A DNA stretch of 64,000 nt from Porticoccus sp. W117 (GTDB lineage: Bacteria > Pseudomonadota > Gammaproteobacteria > Pseudomonadales > Porticoccaceae): positions 17,406 through 81,405 of the forward strand of contig NZ_JATAAF010000012.1 of the NCBI RefSeq assembly GCF_030341905.1. The letters run 5' to 3'. Of the stretch, positions 40,690 to 58,346 are shown piece by piece; the stretch's first letter is position 1; each line of letters begins with the position of its first letter. A program made the translations under genes and the position numbers. The notes under the pieces were generated by a model. That model had not been told where the DNA came from. It saw only the letters and a list, made by a program, of their open reading frames with translations, and did no database searches.

Positions 40690-40804
40690 GTGCGGGCCTC
40701 TGGGTAATTCACTGGTGATATGAGAAAGCCGGGATTTTCTCAAAATGGGCTTTTCTCTGCCTAGTAAAGAGGCCCTGAAAACGGGCTTGATAAGTTTTGA
40801 ATTT

Positions 40805-40822
40805 TGTAAATATAAATTTACG
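40805..40822. promoter_or_regulatory. strong TyrR box (TGTAAA-N6-TTTACg) upstream of hpd and downstream of phhR
   Basis: tgtaaatataaatttacg read directly. Matches the TGTAAA-N6-TTTACA consensus at 11 of 12 positions. Confidence 0.7.
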
Positions 40823-40839
40823 GACGACTCTGGAAAGGC

Positions 40840-42363
40840 TTATTTGAGCGACTTTTTCCCTATACCATAGTCGCGCAGCTTGTTAGCAATGGCGGTATGG
40901 GAAATGCCCAGCCGTTGCGCCAGTTTGCGAGAAGAGGGATAGGCGGGGTAGAGGCGTTGCAGCAGTTCGGATTCAAAGCCCTTGATGGCGGCATCCAGGG
41001 TGGTGACGTGTTCCCGGTTTACCAAGCCCCACTCCTCGGCGTAGCCGGGCAGTTGGAAGTTCTCCGGTTCAATCACCACCCCCTGCGCCACCGATGCCGC
41101 TTGTTGCACGGCGCTTTGCAGCTGGCGCACATTGCCGGGCCAGGAGTAACCTTCCAGTACCGTGCGTGACAGTTCTGAAAGATGCAGTCGACTGCGGCTG
41201 GCTGCGTTGTACTGGCGCAGGAAATGGCGCGCCAGCGGCATGATGTCTTCGTGGCGCTCCCGCAGGGGCGGAATGTCCAGGCTGAGGGCGTTGAGGCGAT
41301 AGAGCAAATCGTCTCTAAACTGCCCTTGTTCGCAGAGTGCGTGCAGGTCTTTTTGTGTGGAACAGATGACTCTGGCTTCACTGTGTAACTCCTGCTCGCT
41401 GCCCACCCGGCGATAACTGCCATCCTGCAACAGGCGCAAAAATTTGGCCTGCAGGCTTTGTGGTAGCTCGGCCACTTCCTGCATAAACACAGTGCCGCCG
41501 TCGGCTATCTCAAACACCCCTTTGTGAACCGTGCCGTCTGGGTCTTGTTGGCCGAACAGTTCGCTCTCGGCGGCGTCTTCAGGCAAGCCGGCACAGTTGA
41601 TGGTGAGGAACGGCTGCTCGTTGCGCAGGCTGTTCTGGTGGCAGGCTCTGGCCAGCAATTCTTTGCCGGTGCCGGTTTCCCCGGTGATCAACAACGGCGC
41701 GTCGAATTCGGTGATGCGCTTGGCCTGGCGCAGCAGGCGCTTCATGCGCGGGCTTTTCGCCTGAATAAATTCAAAGTGGCCACTGTGCTTGTTCCAGGCG
41801 GCGATCTGGCGCCCCAGTTGGGCGGCATTTTTGAACACCACCACGCCACCGGCAAAGGTGTTGTCGTTGCTCACCGTAATAGGGTTGATGTTGGCCAGGT
41901 AGGGGTAGCCGGCAAATTCCAGCTGACAATTGACTTCGCTGGGGCTATTGAGCCACTGGGCCAGGTTAAAGCCTTTTAGCCACTGCTTGAGATGCTTACC
42001 CCGGGCTTCCTCCATATCCAGCTTCAGCAGGCTCAGGGCGGCACCGTTGGCAACGCTGATGTTGCCCTCCTGATCCATGGAGATAACCGGGTCTGGCAGG
42101 GTGTGGAGCAAGGTGTGAATTTCGCTCTGCTCCCGCTCCAGAGGCATGTAGGGCACCCGCACTACGTCTTTTACATCGCTGATGCGGCGGATTTCCGGCA
42201 TCAGCTTTTGCAGTGCGTCGAAATCCAGGTTCTGAAAGCGCAGGAATACCTGGCCATCTTTGCTGACTTCAATGCCGCGCAGGTCGATGTTATGGCGAGA
42301 CAGGGTGTCGAGTATTTCCAGGGCAATGCCAGGGCGGTTTTTGCAGCTGACCAGTAGGCGCAT
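40840..42363 (-). CDS. phhR: sigma-54-dependent transcriptional activator of aromatic amino-acid catabolism (PhhR/TyrR family)
   Basis: ACT domain, PAS, AAA+ sigma-54 interaction domain (GETGTGKE, GAFTGA-like, ESELFG) and C-terminal HTH. 507 aa. Confidence 0.9.
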   Translation of the reverse strand: MRLLVSCKNRPGIALEILDTLSRHNIDLRGIEVSKDGQVFLRFQNLDFDALQKLMPEIRRISDVKDVVRVPYMPLEREQSEIHTLLHTLPDPVISMDQEGNISVANGAALSLLKLDMEEARGKHLKQWLKGFNLAQWLNSPSEVNCQLEFAGYPYLANINPITVSNDNTFAGGVVVFKNAAQLGRQIAAWNKHSGHFEFIQAKSPRMKRLLRQAKRITEFDAPLLITGETGTGKELLARACHQNSLRNEQPFLTINCAGLPEDAAESELFGQQDPDGTVHKGVFEIADGGTVFMQEVAELPQSLQAKFLRLLQDGSYRRVGSEQELHSEARVICSTQKDLHALCEQGQFRDDLLYRLNALSLDIPPLRERHEDIMPLARHFLRQYNAASRSRLHLSELSRTVLEGYSWPGNVRQLQSAVQQAASVAQGVVIEPENFQLPGYAEEWGLVNREHVTTLDAAIKGFESELLQRLYPAYPSSRKLAQRLGISHTAIANKLRDYGIGKKSLK

Positions 42364-42407
42364 AAAGGTAATCAGTAGGTGGGTTTGCTTGGATTGTAAC
42401 GATTGGT

Positions 42408-42758
42408 TTACGGCAGGGCCAGCTCATCTGTGCGCGCTGCCAGAATAAAATCATTGCGGTGCAGGCCGCGGATGGTGTGAGTCCACCAGCTCACGGTGAC
42501 TTTGCCCCATTCCACCAAAAGGACGGGGTGGTGATTGACGCTTTCTGCCACTTCGCCAATCTGATTGGCAAAATTCATTGCGTCGCGAAAGTTGCTGAAC
42601 GTAAATGTTCGTTGTAATTGCTTAATGCCATTGATATCGACGATTTGCCAGTCTGGAAGCTGAGTGAGGAGAGTCGCCGATTCTGAATCGCTAACCTGGG
42701 GGGAGCCTGGCCGGCAGGCTTCACAGGTTTCTTGTGCCAGTGACATGGTGGCCTCCAT
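42408..42758 (-). CDS. phhB: pterin-4a-carbinolamine dehydratase
   Basis: PCD/DCoH fold motif (EVAESVNHHPVLLVEWGKVTVSWWTH). 116 aa. Confidence 0.88.
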   Translation of the reverse strand: MEATMSLAQETCEACRPGSPQVSDSESATLLTQLPDWQIVDINGIKQLQRTFTFSNFRDAMNFANQIGEVAESVNHHPVLLVEWGKVTVSWWTHTIRGLHRNDFILAARTDELALP

Positions 42759-45216: not shown

Positions 45217-46707
45217 ATGGGGATGGCAGTTGATCGCGCCGAATTTACGGATAGCGACTATAAAAATTTCAGTAAAAAACTCAATCGTAATCTCACAGCA
45301 CTAAAACATGTATTGGCACAGCCGGGGTTTGGCGAAGGGGAGGCCTCTCTGGGAGCGGAGATGGAGGTCTACCTGGTAGACCCGGAAGGCAGGCCATTGC
45401 ACCGCAACCGGGAAATCCTCAAAGCCTTTGACGACCCGCTGCTTACCCTGGAACTCAACCGTTACAACCTGGAATACAACTTCAAGCCCATGCCTGCTCG
45501 CGGCACGCCGTTTAGCACCATTGAGCGGGACGCCAGGGATGCACTCAACAAGCTCGACAAAATTGCCAGGGATTTTAATGGCCGGGTGCTGCCCATAGGC
45601 ATTCTGCCCACTCTGCGGGAAACAGACTTTGGCGCCGATGCCATGACCGACGAACCCCGCTATCACGCCCTGGTGGATATGCTGAAGCGGGTACACAAAC
45701 CCGATGCCTCTACCTTCGGTTTGGAAATCAACGGCGCTGACCCACTGAATCTGAGCGACGCTCATATCACCATGGAAGGGGCTTGCACCTCGTTCCAGTT
45801 GCACTACCGGGTGCAGCCGGCAGAATTTGCCAGTGCCTGGAACGCCATTCAGCTGGTGTCCCCGGTAGTACTTGGCCTGGCGGCCAATTCGCCGTTTATG
45901 CTCGGCCACCGTTTGTGGCACGAAACCCGCATTCCTCTGTTCCAGCAATCTTTGGAGGGAATACCTAACCAAAACCTGGAATGGCGCTTGCCCCGTAGAG
46001 TCTGCTTTGGGCTCGGCTGGGCACGCCACAGCGCCGCAGAACTGTTCGAGCAGATGGCGCGGCTTTACCCACCACTGATTCCGCAATGCCATGAAGAAGA
46101 CCCGCTGGACATGGTGGATAACCGCCTGCCAGAGCTGCACGAACTGTTAATGCACACCAGCACCGTGTGGTCATGGAACCGGGCGATCTACAGTACCGGC
46201 GACAATGGCCACCTGCGTATAGAAATGCGCTCGCTACCGGCGGGCCCAACTGGTGTTGATATGGCAGCCAATGCGGCGTTTTTTGTCGGGCTGGCAGCGG
46301 GCATGCGCGAGCAGGCGGATAAAATGGCGACCCTGTTGCCGTTCGAATACGCGGAATACAATTTTTACCGGGCGGCGCGGGATGGCATTGATGCCAGGGT
46401 AATCTGGCCAACCAAGCGCAATATCGGCCTCGACGAAATAAACATCACCGACCTGGCGGAATCCCTGTTGCCCACCGCAGAAGCGGGGCTGGCACGCCTC
46501 GGTGTGGACTACAGTGAAGTGCAGCGCTTTTTGTCCGTAATCTCTGAACGCATAGACTGCCACCGCAACGGTGCCAGCTGGCAGCTGGGCCAGTTTAATC
46601 GCCTGCACAAAAGCCTGGATCGGGAGCAAGCCCTGTCGCGCATGGTGACGCTCTATCGGGAACGGGCCAAAAGCAACATTCCTGTGGCCCAGTGGAATTA
46701 CGAGTAA
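45217..46707 (+). CDS. GCS2-family carboxylate-amine ligase (glutamate--cysteine ligase-like)
   Basis: 496 aa. Pattern resembles the GCS2/YbdK-type ligase fold (RVLPIGILPT, HYRVQP). Exact substrate unknown. Confidence 0.6.
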   Translation: MGMAVDRAEFTDSDYKNFSKKLNRNLTALKHVLAQPGFGEGEASLGAEMEVYLVDPEGRPLHRNREILKAFDDPLLTLELNRYNLEYNFKPMPARGTPFSTIERDARDALNKLDKIARDFNGRVLPIGILPTLRETDFGADAMTDEPRYHALVDMLKRVHKPDASTFGLEINGADPLNLSDAHITMEGACTSFQLHYRVQPAEFASAWNAIQLVSPVVLGLAANSPFMLGHRLWHETRIPLFQQSLEGIPNQNLEWRLPRRVCFGLGWARHSAAELFEQMARLYPPLIPQCHEEDPLDMVDNRLPELHELLMHTSTVWSWNRAIYSTGDNGHLRIEMRSLPAGPTGVDMAANAAFFVGLAAGMREQADKMATLLPFEYAEYNFYRAARDGIDARVIWPTKRNIGLDEINITDLAESLLPTAEAGLARLGVDYSEVQRFLSVISERIDCHRNGASWQLGQFNRLHKSLDREQALSRMVTLYRERAKSNIPVAQWNYE

Positions 46708-46756
46708 CTTATGTTGTATGAAGCGTTGAGTACAGAGATTGGGTAAAGAAAAAACC

Positions 46757-47779
46757 ATGGGACAAGCGGAGCCGTTGTGGAATACCTGGGAAGCGCCTGC
46801 TCCCAATGAGATACCCGAAAACCTGGAAGAATTCTTATGCCACCTGAGCGGCCCCACGGTAATTAGTTTGCCTGGTGCTGACCCGTCCACTACACGAGTA
46901 GCGGTTACGCTGTTGCACGGCAACGAACCCTCTGGCGCCAAAGCCATTCACCGCCTGCTACGGGAAGGTTTCCAGCCTGCTACAAATACATTACTGGTAT
47001 TGGCGTGCATCGCTACCGCGCTGACAGAGCCACTGTTCAGCCACCGGCTGTTGCCGGGCTGCCGGGACATGAACCGCTGCTTTAAGCCGCCATTTGATGA
47101 CTATCAGGGCCAGCTCGCCAAAAGCCTGATTGATACCCTGGCCGGCCTGCAGCCGGAAGCCATTGTCGACCTGCACAACACCTCCGGCGATGGCCCGGCG
47201 TTTGCAGTTACCAGCCAATTTGGTGTTGAGCATATGTCCCTGGCCAACCTGTTTACATCGCGCCTGGTGTATACGGATCTGAGCCTGGGCTCGTTGATGG
47301 AAATAACCGAACCGGGTTGCCCCGTCGTTACCATTGAATGTGGCGGTGCCCGGCAGGCAGAGTCCGATGATGTGGCTTACCAGGGGTTACAGGAATACCT
47401 GCTGCGCCCCCACCTGTTTAAAAATGCCGCTGCCGTACAACTGGATTTGTATCGTCATCCTATGCGCCTGGAACTGAAGGAAGGGTTCCAAATTGATTGC
47501 AGCAGCCAGCCCACGGATGCGGATGTTACCTTGCAGCGCGGTGTTCAAAATTTGAATTTTGGCGAAGTGGAAACTGGCCAACAACTGGCCTGGCTGGGTG
47601 AGCAGGGCATGGCGGCGCTGCAGGTGAAAGACGGTGAGGGCGGCAATCGCCTCGACGAGTTTTTTGAGCAGCGGGAAGGGATGTTGTGTACCCGGCAGCC
47701 GCTGAAACTATTTATGGTGACGGAAAACCCGCATATTGCAGCGACGGATTGTTTGTTTTACTTGGTGGGGGTGGAGTGA
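46757..47779 (+). CDS. succinylglutamate desuccinylase/aspartoacylase (AstE/AspA) family zinc hydrolase
   Basis: Family zinc-ligand motifs VTLLHGNEPSG and DLHNTSGDG, consistent with this family. First ATG at 46757 (the track ORF starts at an upstream TTG). Confidence 0.7.
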   Translation: MGQAEPLWNTWEAPAPNEIPENLEEFLCHLSGPTVISLPGADPSTTRVAVTLLHGNEPSGAKAIHRLLREGFQPATNTLLVLACIATALTEPLFSHRLLPGCRDMNRCFKPPFDDYQGQLAKSLIDTLAGLQPEAIVDLHNTSGDGPAFAVTSQFGVEHMSLANLFTSRLVYTDLSLGSLMEITEPGCPVVTIECGGARQAESDDVAYQGLQEYLLRPHLFKNAAAVQLDLYRHPMRLELKEGFQIDCSSQPTDADVTLQRGVQNLNFGEVETGQQLAWLGEQGMAALQVKDGEGGNRLDEFFEQREGMLCTRQPLKLFMVTENPHIAATDCLFYLVGVE

Positions 47780-47941
47780 GCTGGGTTTCACCCCGTCATA
47801 GCGAGTAGTGACGCTGCATCTAGAGAATTGGAGGCCTTGATGTTTTATCCGATTTACCTGGACTATTCAGAATGTATTCTCATCATCACCATTTTATGAT
47901 TATGATGACGAACTATAAACACTGAGGGATAAAAACTACAC

Positions 47942-49081
47942 ATGCAGGACGCTTATATCACCGGAGTTGGCCGCTTCTTACCTGGCCCGACTATCAGCAA
48001 TAAAGAAGTAGAAGATTATATTGGCTGTATTCATGGTCAGCCCTCTGCTTTCAGAGCAGCCACTCTTCGCAAAAACGGCATCAAGACTCGCCACTACGCT
48101 GTCGATATTGAAGGTAATCACCTTTATACCAATGCTCAAATGGCTGCCGAAGCGATACGTGCAGCAGCGGCGAACGCCAAGCACGATGTAGCCTCTTTGC
48201 AACTACTGGCTACCAGTACAACTCAGGGTGATTTATTGGTGCCTGGGTTTGCCAGTGCTGTGCATGGTGAATTGGGCATACCGCCGCTAGAGCTAGCATC
48301 CTTCCAAAGTGTATGCGCTAGTAGCATGATGGCTATTAAAAACGCTTACCTGAATATCAGGTCTGGCGATAAACAAACAGCCGCTGCTTGTGGCAGTGAG
48401 TTTTCAAGCCGCTGGTTTCGCCCTGGCTTTTATGAATCTTGTGTTGCAGAGGAAGAGGCTCGCAAGCCGCCCATCGATCTGGATTTCTTGCGCTGGACAT
48501 TGTCCGATGGTGCTGGTGCTTTATTTATAGAGCCCAACCCCAAATCGGATGGAGTGTCCTTACGCTGTGACTGGATTGACCTTCAATCGTTTGCTGATCG
48601 CTTCGATCCTTGTATGTACGCTGGCTCCAGTAGCAATGTGCCAGGGGAAAATTTACCTTGGAGCCATTATGCCTCACCGCAGGAAGCTTACCAAGCAGGC
48701 GCGATGGCACTGAGACAGGATTTTGAATTGCTCTATAAAATGTTCCCGGTGTGGCTTGGGTACTACCTGAGTCTGATGGACAAACACGGCTTTAATCCAG
48801 AAAGCATTGACTATTACTTACCTCATTACTCGGCCAAATCCTTGGGCGAAGAGATGAAAAAACTGATGAAGAGCGCTGGGGCTATGATTCCGGAGGAGCG
48901 TTGGTTTAATAATCTAACCACTGTAGGTAATACCGGCTCGGCTTCGATTTTTTTGATGTTGGAAGAACTCTTGCGCGAACAAGATCTACAGCCGGGTCAG
49001 ACTATTCTTTGTTTCGTGCCAGAAAGCGGCCGTTGTATAGCCTCATTTATGCACCTCACTGTTGTCACCAACAAGGACTAA
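47942..49081 (+). CDS. 3-oxoacyl-ACP synthase III (FabH)-like condensing enzyme / acyltransferase
   Basis: N-terminal ITGVGRFLPGPTISNKE, candidate Cys-His-Asn triad (QSVCASSMMA, HYSAK, VGNTGSASI). AT-richer than upstream genes. Confidence 0.75.
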   Translation: MQDAYITGVGRFLPGPTISNKEVEDYIGCIHGQPSAFRAATLRKNGIKTRHYAVDIEGNHLYTNAQMAAEAIRAAAANAKHDVASLQLLATSTTQGDLLVPGFASAVHGELGIPPLELASFQSVCASSMMAIKNAYLNIRSGDKQTAAACGSEFSSRWFRPGFYESCVAEEEARKPPIDLDFLRWTLSDGAGALFIEPNPKSDGVSLRCDWIDLQSFADRFDPCMYAGSSSNVPGENLPWSHYASPQEAYQAGAMALRQDFELLYKMFPVWLGYYLSLMDKHGFNPESIDYYLPHYSAKSLGEEMKKLMKSAGAMIPEERWFNNLTTVGNTGSASIFLMLEELLREQDLQPGQTILCFVPESGRCIASFMHLTVVTNKD

Positions 49082-49087
49082 CCAGAT

Positions 49088-49774
49088 ATGGAAATGAAAT
49101 CCTCTAAAACAGCGGCACAAGCTGTAATGCGTCAACTCATAATCACATGGACCGATTTTGAAAGTCGCCTCCTGAAAGTGCCTATTATCGAGCGCATTAT
49201 GCGCGATCAATTACAGCTGGAAGATTATCGCCAAATCCTGCTAAACCATCGTCAGCAGGTTATAGAAGGCAGTCGTTGGATCGCCCGAGCCTCCTCTTCT
49301 ATTGATAATCGCTACCCGGAACTACGCTCTACTTTTATTCGTCATGCCAATACTGAGCATCGCGATTATCAGATGTTGGACGCAAATTACTTGTCAGTAG
49401 GTGGCGACGTAGAGACGTTGGCCAACAGTGAAAAGAATATAGGTAGTGAAGCCTTGTCTGCGTGGATGTTTCACCAAGCCAGTCAGCCCAATCCATTCGA
49501 CCTGTTAGGCGCAATGTTCATTATCGAGGGATTGGGAAAACAGTTTGCCCGCACCTTCGCTCAGAAAATTCAGAAACAATTGAGACTGAGCGATGATCAA
49601 GTGAGTTTCTACCTATACCATGCTGATCACGACGAAGAGCATATTGGTGAACTGGAAGATGCGCTGCAAAGCGGTATTCTCAGCGATGATGGCTTAGCCG
49701 GCCGCATTGCCAAGACCGCGCGGGTAACCGCCAGGCTTTATCTGTTGCAGTTGGAAGAACTGGGGAACTACTGA
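49088..49774 (+). CDS. heme-oxygenase-like fold protein, probable diiron oxidase (CADD/PqqC/TenA superfamily)
   Basis: 228 aa. Candidate metal ligands E...H (ANTEHRDYQ), E (IIEGLGKQF) and H-x3-D-x2-H (YHADHDEEH) spaced as in CADD-type enzymes. AAGGA RBS 6 nt after the KAS-III stop. Confidence 0.6.
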   Translation: MEMKSSKTAAQAVMRQLIITWTDFESRLLKVPIIERIMRDQLQLEDYRQILLNHRQQVIEGSRWIARASSSIDNRYPELRSTFIRHANTEHRDYQMLDANYLSVGGDVETLANSEKNIGSEALSAWMFHQASQPNPFDLLGAMFIIEGLGKQFARTFAQKIQKQLRLSDDQVSFYLYHADHDEEHIGELEDALQSGILSDDGLAGRIAKTARVTARLYLLQLEELGNY

Positions 49775-50634
49775 TGAGTTGGTCTGACGATTTCGACAAT
49801 CAAACCATCAATACAAAAGACCCTAATCCTTGGCTGGCACTCTATCTGGATGGCAGTTTGCCTATGCACGATCCTGCCAAGCAGGCGCTGCTGCGTGGTC
49901 ACAATACTTGGACCCGACGACTGCTTCTGCCCATTGTTCGTCCGCTTGCGCGGCTAAATATTATTTTGGTGCAACTTCTTCGAGTCATTTTGCCCGAGCG
50001 TTGTAGTTCTTCGCGGATATTGCACAAAACCATCTATTGGGGATTGAAAACTTTCGTCCGAAACGATGCCAATTACCTAATTTTGAGGCACTTCCATATC
50101 GGCACGGAGATACTGGGTTTTATTGCTGATAACGCCAAGGTCACCATCGAGAGTACCGAACCCCTGCGTCCCAATAATTTGGAAGGTTTAATCGAGGATA
50201 CCTTCCTGATTCACGATCTGAATATATTCAACTTTATTTTGGAGTTAAATCACAAGCTGAAGGAAGAGGGGCGGGATCTGACAGCTCCCGAACACCTTAA
50301 TTTGGGTTCTATTACCGATGGCGAGTTTGATATTGAGTTACCTAAAGAGAAGGCATTCAATGTGTTGGACTTACAGACAGCTATTGAAATGTATACGCCT
50401 TTGTACGCGCTGTTTCTATCCGATCGAGACTTCTGGCGTGCTAGTAATTCTTTACAGCTGGATGAAACGATTGCCATTTACATCGGTAAAATACTGAATG
50501 ATGCCATACCATTGGGTTTGGTGAATAATCGGCATCCGTCAGTACCTGTGTCGACTTTACAGGCGGGATTTCGGTTGATGCTGCATGGCTTGGATGCAGA
50601 GATTCTGCATGGATACCTGAGGAGTTTGAAATAA
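49774..50634 (+). CDS. hypothetical protein (286 aa), translationally coupled to the upstream gene (TGATG overlap)
   Basis: Stop/start overlap with the diiron-oxidase gene. No motif I recognise. Confidence 0.55.
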   Translation: MSWSDDFDNQTINTKDPNPWLALYLDGSLPMHDPAKQALLRGHNTWTRRLLLPIVRPLARLNIILVQLLRVILPERCSSSRILHKTIYWGLKTFVRNDANYLILRHFHIGTEILGFIADNAKVTIESTEPLRPNNLEGLIEDTFLIHDLNIFNFILELNHKLKEEGRDLTAPEHLNLGSITDGEFDIELPKEKAFNVLDLQTAIEMYTPLYALFLSDRDFWRASNSLQLDETIAIYIGKILNDAIPLGLVNNRHPSVPVSTLQAGFRLMLHGLDAEILHGYLRSLK

Positions 50635-50685: not shown

Positions 50686-51312
50686 CTAGTCTCCCCCACA
50701 GCTACCACATGAGCTGCTGCAACCTCCACCACAGCGACCGTCTTTACCACCACCTTTACCACCGAAGCTGGCAAACAAAAATCGCAGAGCCAAAAAGCCC
50801 ACGACACACCAAAACCCTATTTCTAACCAACTGGTGCTTTGATCCCCACTTTCTGCAAAGGCAGTCGCTACGGTTCCTGCTAACGCTGCGGGTACAAACC
50901 ACTTCAGTATGTGACTCTTATTATTTGGCTTTGAATTCCATACTAATTGTGGCGGCTCTTTGCCAAATTCGGCTCGATAAAGGGCAAGGGTTTTCTCGAA
51001 TTGCATTTGCATCTGAGTATCTGAGGGAGTGTGATGCAGCTCGGCTCCAAGTATTTCTGAGCAAAACCGACCCCAGTAGGATTTAGTGAATGTCAGGTGT
51101 AAATGCCATACAAGATCAATCGCAGGGGAGGGTGAAACCATACCTTGCTGCAAGGTGGCCAGATAGCAAAATCGCTTGTATTCATCTACTACCTCTAGAC
51201 AGTGATTATGCTTCCAGCCAGTTTCTTGCTTTAGCTTGGTGATAAATAAATCATATTGCCGATCAGCAATTTTGTGATTACGAAGCCGATTCCATAGTTC
51301 TTGATTTGTCAT
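50686..51312 (-). CDS. DUF1399-like domain membrane protein with C-terminal Gly/Cys-rich tail
   Basis: 208 aa. N-terminal ~140-aa domain with IDLVWHLHLTFTKSYWGRFC (reminiscent of the plant/bacterial glycine-rich-domain protein family). One TM helix (WLEIGFWCVVGFLALRFLFASF). Tail GGKGGGKDGRCGGGCSSSCGSCGGD. ATGA start/stop overlap with the upstream NTase gene. Confidence 0.6.
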   Translation of the reverse strand: MTNQELWNRLRNHKIADRQYDLFITKLKQETGWKHNHCLEVVDEYKRFCYLATLQQGMVSPSPAIDLVWHLHLTFTKSYWGRFCSEILGAELHHTPSDTQMQMQFEKTLALYRAEFGKEPPQLVWNSKPNNKSHILKWFVPAALAGTVATAFAESGDQSTSWLEIGFWCVVGFLALRFLFASFGGKGGGKDGRCGGGCSSSCGSCGGD

Positions 51313-52106
51313 GCTACCCCCAATACTGAATGAAACAACTCGTTCAAATCTGACATATCAGGCCTAAGCATTGCCTTATCCAAATCAAGGTTGCTCAAAC
51401 GCTCAATCTCCGATTCCACATAATCATTGAGCGCCTTGATGGCGGGTACAAGCTCTTTTTCGGTGCTGGCTTGTTTGCGTTTCAAAAGAGCAGTTATCTC
51501 CCGATCAAGTTCTGATCCGTCAGGCACTAGCTTGCGCAGCCGATCAAATTCGATGGGCGGAGGTTCGCGGTACTCTTCTAACCAGCGGACAGAGAGCAGG
51601 GGGCGCAGCACATAGAAGTACTTTTTCAGGGGTACGATTTCTGCTTGCAAGTAACCACGGTAGTTGGTTTTGGCCATACTGCGATAATGATAGATGCCTT
51701 TTTCAACAGAGTATCCCCGGCTAAGCAAACTTCTGGCTTGTTCAGCAAAGTGGCCATCATCTACGTACACAATAGGTGATTGGAGCCACTCCACAAACGA
51801 GGGGTTAGACTTGCTGAAAAGCCTCAGTGCTTTGCGAACATCCCAGCCATTGATGTCTATTTCGTCGACTATCTCGTATTCGATCACATCCCGTTTATCT
51901 TCCAGATCTACAGCCACATACCAATCTTTTGGGTGCGCGTAGATAAAGCGAACATCAAAGTCGCTGTTTTGTGAGGCGAACCCCCAGGCTCTGCTGCCGG
52001 ATTCCACAGCGTACAGAATTTTGACGCTGTGTTCTTTTTCGGCGGCGCGTATTCGTCGCAGGATTTCTGCTCGGGTTTCTTTAGGTATCACATGTTCCAT
52101 CATCAT
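51309..52106 (-). CDS. Pol-beta-superfamily nucleotidyltransferase (RlaP/PF10127-like)
   Basis: GS-x9-DxD NTase motif in ILYAVESGSRAWGFASQNSDFDVRFIY. 265 aa. Confidence 0.7.
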   Translation of the reverse strand: MMMEHVIPKETRAEILRRIRAAEKEHSVKILYAVESGSRAWGFASQNSDFDVRFIYAHPKDWYVAVDLEDKRDVIEYEIVDEIDINGWDVRKALRLFSKSNPSFVEWLQSPIVYVDDGHFAEQARSLLSRGYSVEKGIYHYRSMAKTNYRGYLQAEIVPLKKYFYVLRPLLSVRWLEEYREPPPIEFDRLRKLVPDGSELDREITALLKRKQASTEKELVPAIKALNDYVESEIERLSNLDLDKAMLRPDMSDLNELFHSVLGVA

Positions 52107-52163
52107 GATGTCACCTATCAGTGAAAGCCATCTATTCGCCGCAATAGCAAATAGATGGCGGGT

Positions 52164-53312
52164 TTAGCTGTTGGGAGACAACTTGACCATATCATTCAGC
52201 ACGCTATCGAGACCACCGTAAACGGAGATCTTGTCGATGCGGCCGGTGACACGCTCCAGTGCTTCCAGTTCTTTCAAACGCAGCAGCATTGGGTTGTTTT
52301 CCATCAGCTTGGCGGTGTTATGCAGGGAGCGCATCGCCTGAGTCTCCTCGCGACGCTTGATCAGGTTGGCTTCAGACTCTTTTTGAGCCTCTACAACCTG
52401 ATTCAGAATTTCCTTCATATCACCGGGCAAGATAATGTCTTTTACACCAACGCTTGCCAGTTCAATTCCGTACTCGGTCAGCTTGCTGCGAATACCGTCT
52501 GCAATGGCGACGTTCAAGCTGTCTTTGTCTTCCAGCAAGTTATCCAGCGTCTGGGTTCCTACCGCTTCGCGAAGGTGCAGTTGCAGCTCGCGATAGACAA
52601 AGTTGGCGAAGTCGTTCAGCTTGAGTGCAACGATCTTGGGGTCGATCACCCGGTAGCTACCGCTTAGGTTTACCCGCAAGCTGACACGGTCTTTGGTCAG
52701 GATTTCCTGGCCGCTGACTTCGATCGCTTGCAAGCGCAAATCCAGCAGTTTGACGGCTACTGAGCGGTTGTACCTCCAGTAACCGTAGCTTCCTGGCTGC
52801 AGCAGCTCCTGAAACTTGCCATTAACGGTCAGAAGACCCACGTGCTCGTCGGGTACCTCCACATAGTTGATGGCGTTGGAGGCGTTGCGGCTTTTGCCAA
52901 TGGCCAAACCGCGGCCCAGCAACTTCAGCAGTTTGCTATCAATGGCAAACTTTTCGCTGATATCGATCACATCAATACGCACGTCTTCGATTCCCTTCCA
53001 TACGGCAAGGAAGGTGCCTGGTGCAAGAATATCCACCAGGTGACCATCGCGGTAGAACAGGCCTACCTGCATATCGGTCAGCTCAAAGCGGTCAATAAAA
53101 CCATTCAGCTTTTCGGCCTGAGTATTGAGCAGGAACTTGGCTTTGGCGTGGTCAAAAACAATGTTAGTGGCATCGTATTTTTCCAGGCGAGTTTTGCCAG
53201 CCAATGCGTTAATGCGATGGCGGCCGGGCTCAAGTACTCGGTCCAGCCGGTTGCGCCGGTACAGTAATGCCCGCTCGTTATCGGCGATATCTACAGTATT
53301 CCATAACATCAT
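52164..53312 (-). CDS. SPFH/band-7 (stomatin/prohibitin/flotillin-like) domain protein
   Basis: 382 aa. SPFH-like core (ILTKDRVSLRVNLSGSYRVIDPKIVALKLND) and a coiled-coil C-terminal region. No NfeD partner gene adjacent. Confidence 0.7.
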   Translation of the reverse strand: MMLWNTVDIADNERALLYRRNRLDRVLEPGRHRINALAGKTRLEKYDATNIVFDHAKAKFLLNTQAEKLNGFIDRFELTDMQVGLFYRDGHLVDILAPGTFLAVWKGIEDVRIDVIDISEKFAIDSKLLKLLGRGLAIGKSRNASNAINYVEVPDEHVGLLTVNGKFQELLQPGSYGYWRYNRSVAVKLLDLRLQAIEVSGQEILTKDRVSLRVNLSGSYRVIDPKIVALKLNDFANFVYRELQLHLREAVGTQTLDNLLEDKDSLNVAIADGIRSKLTEYGIELASVGVKDIILPGDMKEILNQVVEAQKESEANLIKRREETQAMRSLHNTAKLMENNPMLLRLKELEALERVTGRIDKISVYGGLDSVLNDMVKLSPNS

Positions 53313-53640
53313 TTTTCTCTCCTTTCTCTTGTTGTTCTTTAGGTTACAAATAAAGCGAGGCTCACCCGAAAACCCTGGGGCTGACAGCTTGATCTGCAGT
53401 GGGTGGCGGGTCAGTGGTTTGCGAATATCTGGTTCATTGCGCCTTTGTGTTAACTACTGCGCGCGTAAAACCCGTATTCAGCAAACTTGACCAGACACCG
53501 TCTACAAACTCCCCTGATAGCGGCAGTGAGATCGGCGTTCCAGTTTGTCAATTCTCTCGTTTGATCCAAAATTCGAATCAAACGATTGATGTCAAACATT
53601 CCAGAACCATGAGCCTCTGGTAGATTTATTTAGCAAGGAC

Positions 53641-53690
53641 CTGAACCTTGTGGGGACTCGAACCCCGGGCCTCTCGGCCTTACCTTTTTG
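53641..53690 (-). other. tRNA 3'-fragment-like element (variable-arm-like hairpin GGCCGAGAGGCC + T-arm-like GGGGTTCGAGTCCCC) immediately 3' of tRNA-Met
   Basis: Minus-strand reading. There is no 5' half. Possible att remnant or degenerate tRNA. Confidence 0.35.
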
Positions 53691-53706
53691 TCGTGTTTCA
53701 GACGAC

Positions 53707-53782
53707 TGGTACTTTGGCAGGATTCGAACCTGCGCCCGATCGATTATGAGTCGATTGCTCTACCCAACTGAGCTACAAAGTC
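53707..53782 (-). tRNA. tRNA with CAU anticodon (Met elongator or Ile2-lysidine type)
   Basis: Cloverleaf with D-arm GCTCAGTTGGGTAGAGC, anticodon loop CTCATAA, T-arm GCAGGTTCGAATCCTGC. By my reading the 1:72 pair is G:A and CCA is not cleanly encoded. Confidence 0.65.
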
Positions 53783-53912
53783 GGTGTTTAGGCCGGTTAT
53801 CAAATTGGTACACAACACATGAAGCATGCTTGTGCCAGGCCGATAATCAGAATCGGCTCCGCTAATTTGAATAACAGTTCCCAAACCTTGTTGTGACAGA
53901 CCGCTTATTGCA

Positions 53913-54476
53913 TTAAGCAGCCTGCCAGCATCTTTGCCCGGTAAACCGAGCTTGCAGGTACTCCATTTGATCGCCGCGAATGCGACGGTTTGCCAAGTAC
54001 ATAAACTCAAATACATTTGGCTCAAAGGGAATAGCCAGCAATTCCATACCTGCCTGCTCCGGTGTGCGGCCACCTTTGTGGCTATTGCAACGGGCGCAGG
54101 CGGCAACCACGTTTACCCAGACATCCGGGCCTCCTTGCACACGGGGCACAATGTGATCTCGGGTCAGTACCCGATCATCAAACTGCTGTCCGCAGTACAT
54201 ACAGCGGTGGCCGTCGCGGCGAAACAGCAGGCGATTGCTCAATGCCGGTATAAAGGCTCTTTTCCCTATGTCACCCTCGCAGGCAATAATGGGGGCAAGC
54301 AGCAAAGACGAGCGCTCACCATGGCTATTGATGCCACCGTTAATACGGTAGTGGTCTTCGCCCAGGCTCCACAGCACTTGCTCTTTCACATACAGAACCA
54401 CAGCCTCTTCAGGGGTAACCCATGATTGAGGCAGACCTGTTTTGTTCAGCCTTAGAATGCTGTTTTGCATTGCCAT
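53913..54476 (-). CDS. HNH endonuclease
   Basis: HNH motif HRCMYCGQQF...TRDHIVPRVQGG...AACARCNSHKG. Start MAMQNS at 54476 with a GGAGAAGGAGA RBS. Embedded in the tRNA array. Confidence 0.8.
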   Translation of the reverse strand: MAMQNSILRLNKTGLPQSWVTPEEAVVLYVKEQVLWSLGEDHYRINGGINSHGERSSLLLAPIIACEGDIGKRAFIPALSNRLLFRRDGHRCMYCGQQFDDRVLTRDHIVPRVQGGPDVWVNVVAACARCNSHKGGRTPEQAGMELLAIPFEPNVFEFMYLANRRIRGDQMEYLQARFTGQRCWQAA

Positions 54477-54518
54477 TTTTCTCTCCTTCTCCAATATCGT
54501 GCTCGGCATTGAGCACTA

Positions 54519-54600
54519 ACACCCGATGCAGGAATCGAACCTGCCACCTTCAGCGCCGCTGACCAAAGTTCCACTCCTGTAGAGCTTTTTAATCAGCTGG
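54519..54600 (-). other. degenerate tRNA-like region (good T-arm GCAGGTTCGATTCCTGC but no complete cloverleaf)
   Basis: Several short hairpins and T-arm-like motifs on both strands. Possible pseudo-tRNA. Confidence 0.3.
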
Positions 54601-54614
54601 ACTGGTCGAGTCCG

Positions 54615-54689
54615 TGGTTGGGGCAGTGGGAGTCGAACCCACCTATGCCGGCTTAAAAGGCCGGTGCACAACCGCTATGCCATACCCCA
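54615..54689 (-). tRNA. tRNA with UUU anticodon (nominally Lys) on a Gln-like body
   Basis: TGGGGTATGGCATAGCGG...CACCGG-CCTTTTAAG-CCGGCAT...GGTTCGACTCC...TGCCCCA-A-CCA. Body matches tRNA-Gln conventions (U1:A72, G2-G4), but loop CUUUUAA and discriminator A73 are Lys-type. Confidence 0.6.
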
Positions 54690-54704
54690 AAAAATCATTA
54701 ACAT

Positions 54705-54778
54705 TGGCTGCGGTGCCTGGAATCGAACCAGGGATATCGGAGTCAAAGTCCGATGCGTTACCATTACGCTACACCGCA
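54705..54778 (-). tRNA. tRNA-Gln (UUG)
   Basis: TGCGGTGTAGCGTAATGGTAACGCATCGGACTTTGACTCCGA...CCTGGTTCGATTCCAGG. U1:A72, anticodon loop CUUUGAC. Confidence 0.8.
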
Positions 54779-54793
54779 TATTTCCTGTGCATT

Positions 54794-54867
54794 TGGGGTG
54801 GCGCCGGGGATCGAACCCTGGTCTCCTGGTTCACAGCCAGGCACTCTGCCACTGAGCTAACACCACC
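54794..54867 (-). tRNA. tRNA-His (GUG) with extra 5' G
   Basis: GGTGGTGTTAGCTCAGTGGCAGAGTGCCTGGCTGTGAACCAGG...GGTTCGATCCCCGGCGCCACCCCA. Confidence 0.85.
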
Positions 54868-54889
54868 GTAGCAACACTTATTTCTAAAT

Positions 54890-55037
54890 TGGTGCCCCAT
54901 CTTGGAGTGACTCGAGCCATCCATGGCTCTCGGGCTGCGCCCGCCTGCGGCGCCCAAATTTGCTCTCCTGCAAATTTGTCGAACCAAGAACCTCCAGAAT
55001 CTAAATCTGGCGCCTCTTCCAATTGGGCCAATGGGGC
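54890..55037 (-). ncRNA. aberrant 148-nt tRNA-like gene: tRNA-type acceptor (GCCCCAT...ATGGGGC-A-CCA), D-arm and anticodon arm (loop TTTAGAT, anticodon UAG) but about 90 nt of extra hairpins where the T-arm should be
   Basis: Read from the minus strand. The termini pair perfectly and end in ACCA. The interior has three hairpins (AAATTTGC/GCAAATTT, a GC-rich stem, GAGCC/GGCTC) instead of a canonical T-arm. Confidence 0.4.
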
Positions 55038-55052
55038 AAATAATTAATTATT

Positions 55053-55127
55053 TGGCTGGCCTGGCAGGACTCGAACCTGCGATATTCCGGTTAACAGCCG
55101 GACGCTTTACCACTCAGCTACAGGCCA
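55053..55127 (-). tRNA. tRNA-Asn (GUU)
   Basis: TGGCCTGTAGCTGAGTGGTAAAGCGTCCGGCTGTTAACCGGA...GCAGGTTCGAGTCCTGCCAGGCCAGCCA. Confidence 0.85.
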
Positions 55128-55140
55128 ACAGCTTTTAAAA

Positions 55141-55183
55141 ACACTAAAAAATAAAACCCCGACTGGGGCTGCCAGACGGGGTT
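55141..55183 (-). terminator. intrinsic terminator (minus-strand sense) insulating the tRNA array from rtcBA readthrough
   Basis: aaccccg...cggggtt hairpin. On the minus strand it is followed by TTTTATTTTTTAGTGTTTTT. Confidence 0.6.
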
Positions 55184-55798
55184 TCGAAATTGCTTTCTAC
55201 TGATCCGAATGGCGTAGCCATTCGGAACTTCCGAAGACTACTTCATTGTTGTTTCTCCTGACCTTCTGCCATTGAGTGAGCCAGAAAATTACGTTGTTTA
55301 TGAGAGAAGAGGGGGCTTACATAGTTTTTGGGCGCATCTTCCCTCTGCCCACTTATCTGCGGGCACAGTTCATTAAAATTCGAAAGTTGTTCTGTCCAAT
55401 TACTCAGCAAGCTATTCTCCTCACTGTTCTCATCATTTTCTTTCGGGTACTAAAAAGCCCGGATCAGTTACCTCGTAAAGAGGTGGCCTGCCGGGCTTTA
55501 CAATAAAATATCATTTCATTGTAAACCTGAAAGGCCAGTTAGCCTTCCAGGTTGAAAGCTAACTAATACGCTACGTTCAGGTGTTCACGATCTAACCCAG
55601 CACACATTGGCTGGCTATTTTTAAATTGCACTATATTTTGGTCGCAACTATCCTGGCACAGTATCGAGCTGTGCTTGGGAAGTGTGTTGTAGATAAAGTC
55701 TATCTTCATTGCGACGATTAAAAATTCAAAAAATATAATTTGGTTGGCAATAATAATCTTCAAAAATATTATGTCAATCAATTTCCGAATTTTAAAAA

Positions 55799-56815
55799 CT
55801 ATTTATCGACAAAAACTTCCCAGTAATCTTTTTTCAGCTCTTTAAGCGAGATGTTTACTCCTGTCATTTGTTTAATCACATCAATATTTGTCAGCAAGTG
55901 CTGACTTGGTTGTAGAGTACGAAAGCATCCTCCATTACCTAATGCCATAGGCAATACCAGTTGATCGGCCAAGTGCTCACCCACTGGTACATCTGCTTCC
56001 AGATAACGCTTCATATCCTTCATCGCTCGCCCGGCAACTCGCTCTGCACTGACATGCCGTTCGCCAACAGATTCAAACACTTCCGTAACTGCTTCTGATG
56101 CAACTTGCAACGATAGTAAGTTGCCAGGGCCTGCGGAGTTAACCAGTTTTTGCGTCAACTCTGATTCGCTCCAGTAGCATTTCTTTTGCACTTGAGCCAA
56201 CTCGCGTTCTGTCACATGCTCTGGCACGCGCGCAGATATGGCGACAGCTTTTCGCTTAATAATTTCGCCTCGCTTGACCAAATCCAGAGACTTGACTCCC
56301 TTGGTTGGTTGTATTCGGGCTTTCCAAAATCCGCCGCCTGCCGGGTAAAAACCGTATCGCTCTAGTTCCACCTCAACATGGCAACCCATTTTATTTATGA
56401 TTGGTAAAAAGCACCGTTCAATAAACTCGAAGCTCGGTGCCATACCGTTATGGGTTCCACCCTCCAGAGTTAATTCGCTAATATCATCAGCAAGAAGCAG
56501 GGGTAGTAGCACCGTCTGGAATACCAACGTCGTACTGCCCGCCGAGCCAATCGCAAAATGGTAGCTGCCTGATTTAACCTTTCCGGGTTCAAACGTCACC
56601 CTGGATGATCCCATTGCATCACCACTGACCTGAGCATTGCAAATGCCCTGAGCAGCCCGCAAGCAGGTTAAATGCTGGCGCAATAATCCCGGCTTGTTTC
56701 TGCCTGCCCGAATATTCTCAATGCAGACCGACTTGCCAAGGCACATGGCCAGGGTCAACGAGGTTCTGAATATTTGCCCTCCACCTTCGCCTTGAGAGCC
56801 GTCGATAGTGATCAT
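55799..56815 (-). CDS. rtcA: RNA 3'-terminal phosphate cyclase
   Basis: MITIDGSQGEGGGQIFRTSLTLAMCLGKSVCIENIRAGRNKPGLLRQHLT aligns with E. coli RtcA. 338 aa. Confidence 0.93.
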   Translation of the reverse strand: MITIDGSQGEGGGQIFRTSLTLAMCLGKSVCIENIRAGRNKPGLLRQHLTCLRAAQGICNAQVSGDAMGSSRVTFEPGKVKSGSYHFAIGSAGSTTLVFQTVLLPLLLADDISELTLEGGTHNGMAPSFEFIERCFLPIINKMGCHVEVELERYGFYPAGGGFWKARIQPTKGVKSLDLVKRGEIIKRKAVAISARVPEHVTERELAQVQKKCYWSESELTQKLVNSAGPGNLLSLQVASEAVTEVFESVGERHVSAERVAGRAMKDMKRYLEADVPVGEHLADQLVLPMALGNGGCFRTLQPSQHLLTNIDVIKQMTGVNISLKELKKDYWEVFVDK

Positions 56816-56910
56816 TCTTCTTTCTCTTTAGCTTGTTTATTCACAACTAGCCGCAAGCGTCCGTCAAAAACGGTCGCCATCCCCTGGCGTAAAAACATCC
56901 CTGTAAACCG

Positions 56911-58137
56911 TTAACCTTTCACGCAGACGACTTGCTTCAGCGTGTAAACCACTTCTACCAAGTCCTTTTGCGCTGCCATCACTTTTTCGATGGGCTTGTA
57001 CGCAGAAGGGGTCTCATCGATTACACCTTGGTCCTTACGGCATTCCACATCCGCTGTGGCCAAGCAATGCTCTTCCAGTGAAACCAGTTTCTTGGCTTGT
57101 GTACGAGACATCACTCGTCCGGCGCCGTGGCTGCAGCTGCAAAAGCTCTCTTCGTTACCCAGGCCGCGAACTATGAAAGACTTTGCTCCCATGCTGCCGG
57201 GAATAATGCCCATCTCACCTTCGCGGGCTCGTACCGCGCCTTTGCGAGTGACCAATACGTTTTTGCCGTAGTGGTTTTCGCGGGAGACGTAGTTATGGTG
57301 GCAGTTCACTGCTTCCATACGCGCCTCAAAGTTGATTTTCATGGTATCGCGCACGGCTTTAATGACTCGGGCCATCATTACCTCGCGGTTCAGCCGGGCA
57401 AATTCCTGCGCCCATTCCACCGCTTCCACATACTGATCAAAGTGCTCAGTGCCTTCCGGCAGGTAAGCCAGATCAGAATCCGGCAGATGGATATGCCAGC
57501 GTTCCATGTCTTTTTTAGCCATCTCGATAAAGTGCGTACCAATACGGTTACCCACTCCGCGAGAGCCGCTATGGAGCATTAACCAAACTGCATCGTGCTC
57601 GTCCAGACACATCTCAATAAAGTGATTGCCGGTACCCAACGTACCCAGGTGGTTCAGGTTATTGGTGTTTTTCAGCACACGGTGCTTTTCTTGCAGCACA
57701 TCGAACTGGCCTGCCAGTTGTGCCCAGGCAGTCATTACGTCGTCCGGCGCATTAGTCCAGGCACCTTTATCCCGGTTGCCTCGGGCGCGAGCAGAACGAC
57801 CGTGAGGTACAGCTTTCTCAATCGCTGAGCGAATACCCGCCAGGTTATCCGGCAGCTGGGAAGCGGTAAGGCTGGTGCGAACCGCCATCATTCCGCAACC
57901 AATATCCACACCCACTGCAGCGGGGATTACTGCGCCCAATGTGGGCACTACGCTACCGATAGTCGCGCCTTTACCCAGGTGCACATCGGGCATGGCCGCT
58001 ACCCACCTATGAATAAAGGGCATACGGGAAATGTTTTTCAGCTGATCTTTGGCCTTATCTTCAAAAGGTACGCCCACAGTCCAGGACTTGATAGGTACGC
58101 CACCATCCTGCATCACTTCGTAAGTTTGTTCATTCAT
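56911..58137 (-). CDS. rtcB: RNA-splicing ligase RtcB
   Basis: 408 aa, near-full-length identity to E. coli RtcB (MPDVHLGKGATIGSV, GTGNHFIE, C-terminal HGAGRVMSRT...VVCVKG). Confidence 0.95.
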   Translation of the reverse strand: MNEQTYEVMQDGGVPIKSWTVGVPFEDKAKDQLKNISRMPFIHRWVAAMPDVHLGKGATIGSVVPTLGAVIPAAVGVDIGCGMMAVRTSLTASQLPDNLAGIRSAIEKAVPHGRSARARGNRDKGAWTNAPDDVMTAWAQLAGQFDVLQEKHRVLKNTNNLNHLGTLGTGNHFIEMCLDEHDAVWLMLHSGSRGVGNRIGTHFIEMAKKDMERWHIHLPDSDLAYLPEGTEHFDQYVEAVEWAQEFARLNREVMMARVIKAVRDTMKINFEARMEAVNCHHNYVSRENHYGKNVLVTRKGAVRAREGEMGIIPGSMGAKSFIVRGLGNEESFCSCSHGAGRVMSRTQAKKLVSLEEHCLATADVECRKDQGVIDETPSAYKPIEKVMAAQKDLVEVVYTLKQVVCVKG

Positions 58138-58185
58138 TTTTCAATTCCTGTAAATAGCTGTTCTCGTTTTTCTTGTTATGGGTAT

Positions 58186-58202
58186 AGCAAGGCGGGGGCC
58201 AA
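58186..58202 (-). promoter_or_regulatory. sigma-54 promoter of rtcBA (TTGGCCCCCGCCTTGCT = TGGC-N7-TTGC)
   Basis: GG and GC elements at the exact consensus spacing. About 45 bp upstream of the rtcB start. Divergent from rtcR. Confidence 0.75.
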
Positions 58203-58346
58203 CTTTTGTAGTGAGGTGAAAATATTTCTTAAGTTGCTGAAAATAAAAGAATAAATATTTTTATTATGCTGAGGCTAGTGATTGCAGCAAAAAATTAAGT
58301 TAAATTTAACTATCAAAATAGATATAAAAATAATATATTCGATATT

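Follow-up and report, generated by a model that had tools for sequence, protein, structure and literature searches.

What might a bacterium make with a DarB-like ketosynthase when DarA is missing? The question is raised by three genes of Porticoccus sp. W117, located on the plus strand at positions 47942-50634 of the 64-kb stretch of DNA analysed here (the window). They encode a StlD/DarB-like beta-ketosynthase, a heme-oxygenase-like dimetal oxidase/oxygenase (HDO) and a protein of the family DUF6999. The second and third products are 100% identical to proteins of strain W117. DarB homologs without DarA are known and their products are unexplained (PMC6836626; PMC10088813). We tentatively favour the reading that the cassette carries out a DarA-independent head-to-head condensation, in which the ketosynthase would build a ring, the HDO would oxidise it, and DUF6999 would perform a second metal-dependent step.

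Layout of the cassette

The elements of the cassette are as follows.

47942-50634, plus strand: three-gene cassette of Porticoccus sp. W117 in the 64-kb window.
47877-47906, plus strand: weak sigma-70-like promoter candidate TTCTCA-18-TATGAT, from a consensus scan with 9/12 matches (pattern match alone).
47924-47929, plus strand: GAGGGA, Shine-Dalgarno-like element of gene 1, 12 nt before the ATG, read from the sequence.
47942-49081, plus strand: gene 1, StlD/DarB-like beta-ketosynthase of 379 aa, with catalytic C125, E153, H295 and N330.
49073-49077, plus strand: AAGGA ribosome-binding site of gene 2, in the 3' end of gene 1 and 10 nt before the ATG at 49088, read from the sequence.
49088-49774, plus strand: gene 2, heme-oxygenase-like dimetal oxidase/oxygenase (HDO, PF14518) of 228 aa, with putative ligands E90, E147, H178, D182 and H185, plus H86 and D93.
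49774-50634, plus strand: gene 3, all-alpha DUF6999 protein (PF22523) of 286 aa, with deeply invariant R105-H106, H147-D148, D199, D230, H271 and E276.

The three genes form a coupled operon. A preliminary description, made from the sequence of the window, had reported three plus-strand genes with 6-bp and -1-bp junctions and an AAGGA element before gene 2. The coordinates bear this out: genes 1 and 2 are separated by a 6-nt gap (49082-49087), and genes 2 and 3 share the TGATG at 49772-49776 with a 1-nt overlap. The promoter candidate is situated about 36 nt 5' of gene 1, within the 162-nt gap upstream. No convincing terminator candidate was found after the operon, and an Rfam scan in and after it returned only unrelated tRNAs, downstream. 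The cassette has a GC content of 47.3%, against 54.7% in window positions 1-47941. GC at third codon positions (GC3) is 48-50% in the cassette and 62-67% in the two genes upstream, in agreement with the earlier remark that the region is richer in AT than the ligase and deacylase genes preceding it. The lower GC content persists 3' of the cassette up to the window end.

The ketosynthase

Gene 1 had been described as FabH-like. It is a condensing enzyme of the KAS-III type, but the likeness to FabH did not hold. Whereas its Pfam matches are to generic KAS-III domains only, it reaches 391.2 bits on the NCBIfam model NF005293 (StlD/DarB family beta-ketosynthase), below the curated cutoff of 450, versus 85 bits on the FabH models of NCBIfam. 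The closest solved structure is StlD (PDB 5gk0), aligned over the full length with 280 bits; FabH structures reach at most 50 bits. The proposed Cys-His-Asn triad was recovered as C125, H295 and N330, which align with C126, H302 and the Asn of the GNTG motif in StlD, while E153 aligns with StlD E154 (the numbering of the StlD PDB chain is offset by +20). All four residues are invariant in 71/71 gene 1 homologs from other genomes. A catalytic role of Glu154 in StlD was reportedly described by Mori et al. in 2016.

The phylogeny that had been suggested as a check shows gene 1 to be related to DarB, but in a clade of its own. In a neighbour-joining tree (distance-based, without support values), the ketosynthases adjoining a heme-oxygenase-like gene and DUF6999 form one clade, and StlD, DarB and Bacteroidota ketosynthases form a separate clade with about 40% identity to the first; the tree mixes phyla. 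A second cassette ketosynthase scored 372 bits on NF005293, and a genuine DarB from a Burkholderia pseudomallei plasmid, adjoining a verified DarA and an acyl carrier protein (ACP), scored 599.8 bits. Judged by these comparisons, gene 1 belongs to a cassette-specific sister clade of the StlD/DarB head-to-head ketosynthases and is not a generic FabH.

The heme-oxygenase-like protein

Gene 2 matches Pfam PF14518 with 42.9 bits (cutoff 28.9, E 6e-11), a family now recognised as HDOs (PMC13133933). Structure prediction, which the preliminary description had recommended, gave the heme-oxygenase-like result expected there, with CADD and 3DDE nearest and the metal ligands kept. The AlphaFold2 model, built with 25 homologs (pLDDT 93, pTM 0.89), has the seven-helix heme-oxygenase-like fold, and Foldseek matched it to 3DDE and the Fe/Mn enzyme CADD with probability 1.00 and TM 0.81-0.85. 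Weaker fold neighbours were TenA (TM 0.66-0.74), UndA (TM 0.6-0.7) and true heme oxygenases. The nearest solved structure, 3DDE (Sden_3740 of Shewanella denitrificans; profile E 5e-9, TM 0.81-0.83), differs from gene 2 in that the two are only 17-18% identical and in having a His at the D93 position, giving E-x2-H. As 3DDE is uncharacterised, it adds nothing on the chemistry of gene 2.

In a profile alignment with CADD (comparator sequence identical to 1RCW chain A), the ligands of CADD and gene 2 pair as E81/E90, E142/E147, H174/H178, D178/D182 and H181/H185, so that 5/6 CADD ligands are matched by residues invariant in 78/78 members of the gene 2 family. The CADD-type H-x3-D-x2-H motif noticed earlier corresponds to H178/D182/H185 and is itself invariant in 78/78. 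The motif described for HDOs consists of HxxxDxxH on core helix 3 together with a Glu on core helix 2 and a bridging Glu on core helix 1 (PMC13133933). Altogether seven His, Asp or Glu residues are invariant in the family (78/78): H86, E90, D93, E147, H178, D182 and H185. Of the six-ligand diiron site that had been anticipated, the fold and five ligands were therefore found, but the canonical His position on core helix 1 was not: gene 2 has no His at the position occupied in CADD (+7), UndA (+3) or SznF and RohS (+10). What the family has instead is an invariant H86, which precedes E90 by four residues, and an invariant D93, which follows E90 by three and occupies the position of the UndA His; from this conservation, either H86 or D93 may replace the missing His as a candidate ligand. 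Position 60, where a seventh ligand might sit, is Glu or Asp in 74/78 sequences and Gln in 4, and the helix before core helix 1 (residues 44-70) runs unbroken in the model, as in UndA. An extra carboxylate ligand on auxiliary helix 2 marks the N-oxygenase subgroup (PMC7848743).

Two other identities were considered for gene 2. TenA thiaminase II requires a catalytic Cys. Because the translation of gene 2 contains no Cys, and the HDO ligand set is present, a TenA thiaminase, which had been named as the outcome that would overturn the assignment, is excluded. CADD uses its own Tyr27 and Lys152 as self-sacrificed, protein-derived substrate residues. A p-aminobenzoate synthase of this type was rejected for gene 2: K152 pairs with F157, and Tyr27, just outside the aligned region, would fall at I34. 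On the basis of the model, we confidently assign gene 2 as a putative heme-oxygenase-like dimetal enzyme. It shares with CADD, UndA, BesC, SznF and RohS the PF14518 domain, the fold, the Glu pair on the core helices and HxxxDxxH, but is at most 18% identical to any characterised HDO. In the searchable literature, no characterised HDO has a ketosynthase as its partner, fused or separate.

The DUF6999 protein

The 286-aa product of gene 3, earlier called unknown, indeed has no fold relative in the PDB, but it does belong to a named family: it matches DUF6999 (Pfam PF22523) with 379.7 bits over profile positions 2-275 of 275 (cutoff 27). Searches of DUF6999 against other Pfam families at relaxed thresholds gave nothing consistent, and its fold is apparently new. 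Ten residues, mostly His, Asp and Glu, are invariant down to 23% identity, and three His and four carboxylates are kept at 23-32% identity. Such a His/Asp/Glu-rich set points to catalysis rather than scaffolding, and DUF6999 is therefore probably itself an enzyme. Residues 50-72 form a hydrophobic, Arg-studded helix (Kyte-Doolittle 19-residue mean 1.64). In loci where the HDO falls to 30-35% identity, DUF6999 stays at 52-56%; it is the most constrained member of the trio.

Conservation and fusion of the trio

A scan for DUF6999 loci with one genome per species returned at least 567 loci. Synteny was counted in the best 80 of these, 76 of which were informative, i.e. had sufficient upstream sequence. 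In 76/76 informative loci the ketosynthase, the heme-oxygenase-like gene and DUF6999 share a strand and follow one another in this order, so that their adjacency is not due to chance; the possibility that the operon is a fatty-acid initiation module beside an unrelated neighbour, raised in the preliminary description, was not realised. Carriers of the trio are found in about ten phyla, among them Gamma-, Alpha- and Betaproteobacteria, Acidobacteriota, Myxococcota, Paenibacillaceae, Rhodothermales, Verrucomicrobia and Planctomycetes.

In the loci surveyed the cassette always stands alone, accompanied by neither a transporter nor a regulator nor an ACP. Likewise, clustering of open reading frames revealed no further conserved neighbours (ACP, ligase, transporter or regulator) beyond closely related genomes; this clustering was crude, with merged ketosynthase and heme-oxygenase-like frames and spurious overlapping frames in high-GC loci, and was used for the absence of neighbours only. 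The genes that flank the cassette in the W117 window do not recur at other loci. The non-recurrent flanks, the GC shift and the mixing of phyla in the ketosynthase tree indicate a self-contained, horizontally mobile module.

In 39/76 loci the ketosynthase and the HDO are fused into a single polypeptide of about 630-650 aa. The ketosynthase was never fused to DUF6999 among the surveyed loci, and the census contained zero DUF6999 fusions. The fusion argues strongly that the heme-oxygenase-like enzyme acts on the product of the ketosynthase. Several stand-alone heme-oxygenase-like homologs are named "3-oxoacyl-[acyl-carrier-protein] synthase-3" by JGI, NCBI and UniRef, which is misleading; this name has probably been carried over from the fusion proteins.

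Additional genes join the operon in some lineages. A Delta9-type membrane FA_desaturase gene is present at 15 loci, in 13/15 between the fusion gene and DUF6999, and one divergent cassette includes an FA_hydroxylase gene. At a single locus (L089), DUF6999 is followed by a translationally coupled, PIG3-type, quinone-reductase-like MDR gene. Of seven contexts in which DUF6999 is deeply divergent, 6/7 keep the trio with its heme-oxygenase-like domain; the exception is the short contig L088.

Three further loci have peculiarities of their own. On the Nostoc flagelliforme plasmid pNFSY08 (L084, 5001-7617) the cassette has decayed: the ketosynthase frame is intact (43% identity), and the heme-oxygenase-like and DUF6999 genes persist as unannotated fragments only. 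A contig binned as an Acaryochloris sp. metagenome-assembled genome (L007), hence as cyanobacterial, has a cassette that closely resembles those of Gammaproteobacteria: its ketosynthase and DUF6999 protein are 63% and 67% identical to those of W117, and its ketosynthase groups with that of W117 in the tree; either a recent transfer or a binning error would explain this cassette. DarA-less DarB homologs have been noted in Acaryochloris (PMC6836626). The Pseudoalteromonas sp. THAF3 plasmid pTHAF3_a (L081, 3436-8544) harbours a deep variant whose DUF6999 is 26% identical to that of W117. Its neighbours on the same strand, upstream a 185-aa protein that matches no family and downstream one of 634 aa, may be lineage-specific additions.

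Comparison with known systems

The ketosynthases DarB, BrtD and StlD join a 3-oxoacyl and a 2-enoyl thioester head-to-head into a carboxy-cyclohexanedione, which DarA, BrtC and StlC then aromatise with decarboxylation; the thioesters used by DarB and BrtD derive from fatty acid synthase (FAS) (PMC6836626; PMC10088813). Gene 1 resembles these enzymes as a full-length StlD homolog with the same triad and the Glu154 equivalent, and, as in the dar, stl and brt clusters, a gene for an oxidative partner adjoins the ketosynthase. The cassette also lacks a dedicated ACP, like the brt cluster, which draws its substrates from primary fatty-acid synthesis (PMC6836626), and this implies the same source for the substrates of the cassette. 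It departs from these clusters in having an HDO and DUF6999 instead of the flavodoxin-like DarA/StlC, and in having a ketosynthase that falls in a separate clade, below the family cutoff, and is often fused to the HDO.

The absence of DarA was assessed by tblastn with two DarA proteins, which detected no DarA/StlC homolog in the 64-kb window or in the 80 cassette loci. The DarA comparator is the 318-aa protein encoded upstream of the Burkholderia DarB, which is 58% identical to the "aromatase DarA" of P. chlororaphis and 55% identical to the "aromatase StlC" of Photorhabdus. It is also homologous to a protein adjoining a Streptomyces ketosynthase and has weak flavodoxin/FMN-reductase similarity. 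A cryptic DarA/StlC in the guise of DUF6999 was rejected, since hhalign gave 0.1% against the single sequence and 0.4% between profiles. As far as these comparisons reach, DarA/StlC is unrelated to either partner of the ketosynthase, the HDO or DUF6999.

The preliminary description had not recognised the combination as a described pathway, and we concur: the searchable literature contains no publication on the cassette (searched for as DUF6999, PF14518 and StlD/DarB with HDO). A preprint on listianol was rejected as a precedent; it deals with a canonical DarA/DarB cluster. The resorcinol rule of antiSMASH is keyed on DarB-like ketosynthases and might flag the cassette. The set of partners, the fusion and the DUF6999 fold are likewise absent from that literature, while both enzyme superfamilies and the DarAB-like logic of the pathway are known.

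Proposed pathway and alternative explanations

As judged from family membership and the conserved catalytic residues, the ketosynthase would take two FAS-derived thioesters, a 3-oxoacyl and a 2-enoyl chain, with no dedicated ACP or ligase encoded in the cassette. Michael addition and Claisen cyclisation would yield a dialkyl carboxy-cyclohexanedione, as with StlD, DarB and BrtD. The dimetal enzyme (Fe/Fe or Fe/Mn) would receive this product directly, as the fusion, the fold and the ligands suggest, and would oxidise it in an O2-dependent reaction, most probably an oxidative decarboxylation with aromatisation to a dialkylresorcinol. It would thereby replace DarA/StlC with chemistry analogous to the carboxylate-triggered decarboxylation by UndA and BesC. 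In these enzymes the substrate carboxylate serves as the seventh ligand for oxidative decarboxylation (PMC13133933; PMC7848743), and a carboxylate-bearing substrate of the cassette would fit this substrate-triggered mode (PMC13133933). The third step is the weakest of the proposal: from its conserved residues, DUF6999 may be a second enzyme, probably metal-dependent, that tailors or processes the same hydrophobic intermediate. The desaturase, hydroxylase or quinone-reductase-like genes of some lineages would supply extra tailoring. The end product would be an oxidised dialkyl-ring lipid. The earlier expectation of a small acyl-derived product is retained insofar as the pathway would be an undescribed acyl pathway, but since gene 1 is of the StlD/DarB-like, ring-forming type, a product of the dialkyl-cyclohexanedione/resorcinol type is likelier than a simple alkene.

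Several observations weigh against this proposal. Gene 1 scores below the StlD/DarB cutoff (391 vs 450 bits) and lies in its own clade at about 40% identity, and its chemistry could therefore differ from that of StlD and DarB. The sixth ligand of CADD, the core-helix-1 His H88, falls in a 4-residue alignment gap of gene 2. The strongest conservation in the trio is that of DUF6999, as would be expected of a central enzyme rather than of a peripheral one. The divergent contig L088 has a ketosynthase that passes the StlD/DarB threshold (459 bits) and is followed directly by DUF6999, with no HDO, which hints that DUF6999 and not the HDO may be the essential partner of the ketosynthase. Finally, all members of the trio are known from sequence and predicted structure alone.

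The main rival explanation takes up the conservation of DUF6999 and the arrangement in L088 and swaps the roles: DUF6999 would replace DarA on the ketosynthase product, and the HDO would perform an additional oxidation, e.g. hydroxylation of the ring or a chain to give a hydroxyquinol or quinone. We regard it as unlikely, albeit not negligible. It would account for the higher identity of DUF6999 (52-56%, as against 30-35% for the HDO), for the retention of its three His and four carboxylates where identity has dropped to 23-32%, for the arrangement in L088, and for the PIG3-type quinone-reductase-like gene coupled after DUF6999 in L089. However, the L088 contig is only 2.4 kb long and an HDO gene could lie elsewhere, the link to the quinone reductase comes from one locus, and the protein to which the ketosynthase is fused, in 39/76 loci, is the HDO and never DUF6999, an argument for the HDO as the first enzyme to act on the ketosynthase product. 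Less likely than swapped roles is a ketosynthase of the FabH/PqsD type that makes a linear product, from which an UndA/BesC-like HDO would form a terminal alkene, methyl ketone or chain-oxidised metabolite without any ring. The presence of UndA among the structural neighbours of gene 2 (TM 0.6-0.7) and the below-cutoff score and separate clade of the ketosynthases would suit it, but CADD and 3DDE are nearer to gene 2 than UndA, and the ketosynthase aligns end-to-end with StlD (280 bits vs at most 50 for FabH structures), scores 391 bits on the StlD/DarB model vs 85 on FabH models, and has the Glu154 equivalent in 71/71 homologs; we consider a linear product improbable.

Also less likely than swapped roles, and distinctly improbable in our view, is a non-biosynthetic module for lipid remodelling, catabolism or detoxification, in which DUF6999 would have no catalytic activity and would serve at the membrane as a scaffold, carrier or immunity protein. 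A cassette that stands alone without transporter, regulator or ACP, the Arg-studded hydrophobic helix at DUF6999 residues 50-72, and neighbouring desaturase and hydroxylase genes that act on membrane lipids are all compatible with such a module. However, the characterised relatives in the ketosynthase family are all biosynthetic (PMC6836626), and the ten DUF6999 residues invariant at 23% identity point to catalysis. Although StlD/DarB is the best family match of gene 1, an ordinary darABC or stlCDE cluster for dialkylresorcinols or stilbenes is hardly credible: neither the cassette nor the 64-kb window encodes a DarA/StlC homolog or an ACP, the DarA/StlC profile is unrelated to DUF6999, and the ketosynthase neither falls within the StlD/DarB clade nor reaches the family cutoff. 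We consider a canonical dar cluster essentially excluded.

The DarA-independent condensation remains our preferred reading. A bolder version of it, to which we give a rather low probability, is that DUF6999 founds a new structural class of helical, metal-dependent enzymes, which might be dinuclear and require O2, and that together with the ketosynthase-fused HDO it makes unrecognised oxidised dialkyl-ring lipids with a general physiological role in hundreds of environmental species from about ten phyla. Such lipids might be, for example, hydroxylated dialkylresorcinols or quinones, and their roles might include membrane protection, redox function or signalling.

Neighbouring genes in the window

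The surroundings of the cassette contain the following genes.

39610-40743, minus strand: 4-hydroxyphenylpyruvate dioxygenase (HPPD)-like gene, by translation alone.
40840-42363, minus strand: TyrR/PhhR-like sigma-54 regulator, by translation alone.
42408-42758, minus strand: pterin-4a-carbinolamine dehydratase-like gene, by translation alone.
45217-47779, plus strand: GCS2/YbdK-like carboxylate-amine ligase of 496 aa and AstE/AspA-like deacylase of 346 aa, separated by a 31-nt gap.
50686-51312, minus strand: 208-aa protein with a weak GRDP-like match, converging on the 3' end of the cassette.
51309-52106, minus strand: RlaP nucleotidyltransferase.
52164-53312, minus strand: SPFH/Band-7 protein.
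53708-55127, minus strand: five tRNA genes (Met, Lys, Gln, His, Asn).
53913-54509, minus strand: HNH endonuclease.
55799-56815, minus strand: RtcA.
56911-58137, minus strand: RtcB.
58347-59942, plus strand: RtcR, sigma-54 activator.

Immediately 3' of the cassette, an RNA-repair neighbourhood of lower GC content extends over 50686-59942. Judging from the break in GC and GC3 at about 47.8 kb, the cassette may have been acquired together with this region as one segment. The 208-aa protein has a hydrophobic segment followed by a C-terminal Gly/Cys-rich tail (GGKGGGKDGRCGGGCSSSCGSCGGD). Upstream, the ligase and deacylase genes score far below equivalog cutoffs, have host-like GC3 and are not kept beside the cassette elsewhere; they look like an uncharacterised pair. 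The genes at 39610-42758 are located about 5-8 kb 5' of the cassette. Cyclohexanedione-type compounds are classic HPPD inhibitors; the closeness of the HPPD-like gene to the cassette is probably coincidental.

Implications

Reviews of alkylresorcinols leave the function of DarB ketosynthases without DarA open, and the cassette is a broad and uniform candidate for an answer, with its occurrence in at least 567 genomes, the frequent fusion of ketosynthase and HDO, and database sequences that number in the thousands. If the reading of DUF6999 as a new enzyme class is true, the DarA-less DarB clusters of these reviews would be explained. The cassette is small enough for direct heterologous expression. 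Its characterisation would give the HDO superfamily a new reaction and its first ketosynthase-coupled member, and would assign a function to DUF6999, whose fold would probably be new among metalloenzymes. It would also provide a 2.7-kb, easily expressed route to lipids of the dialkyl-cyclohexanedione/resorcinol type, a class whose members act as signals, antibiotics and herbicide-like HPPD inhibitors.

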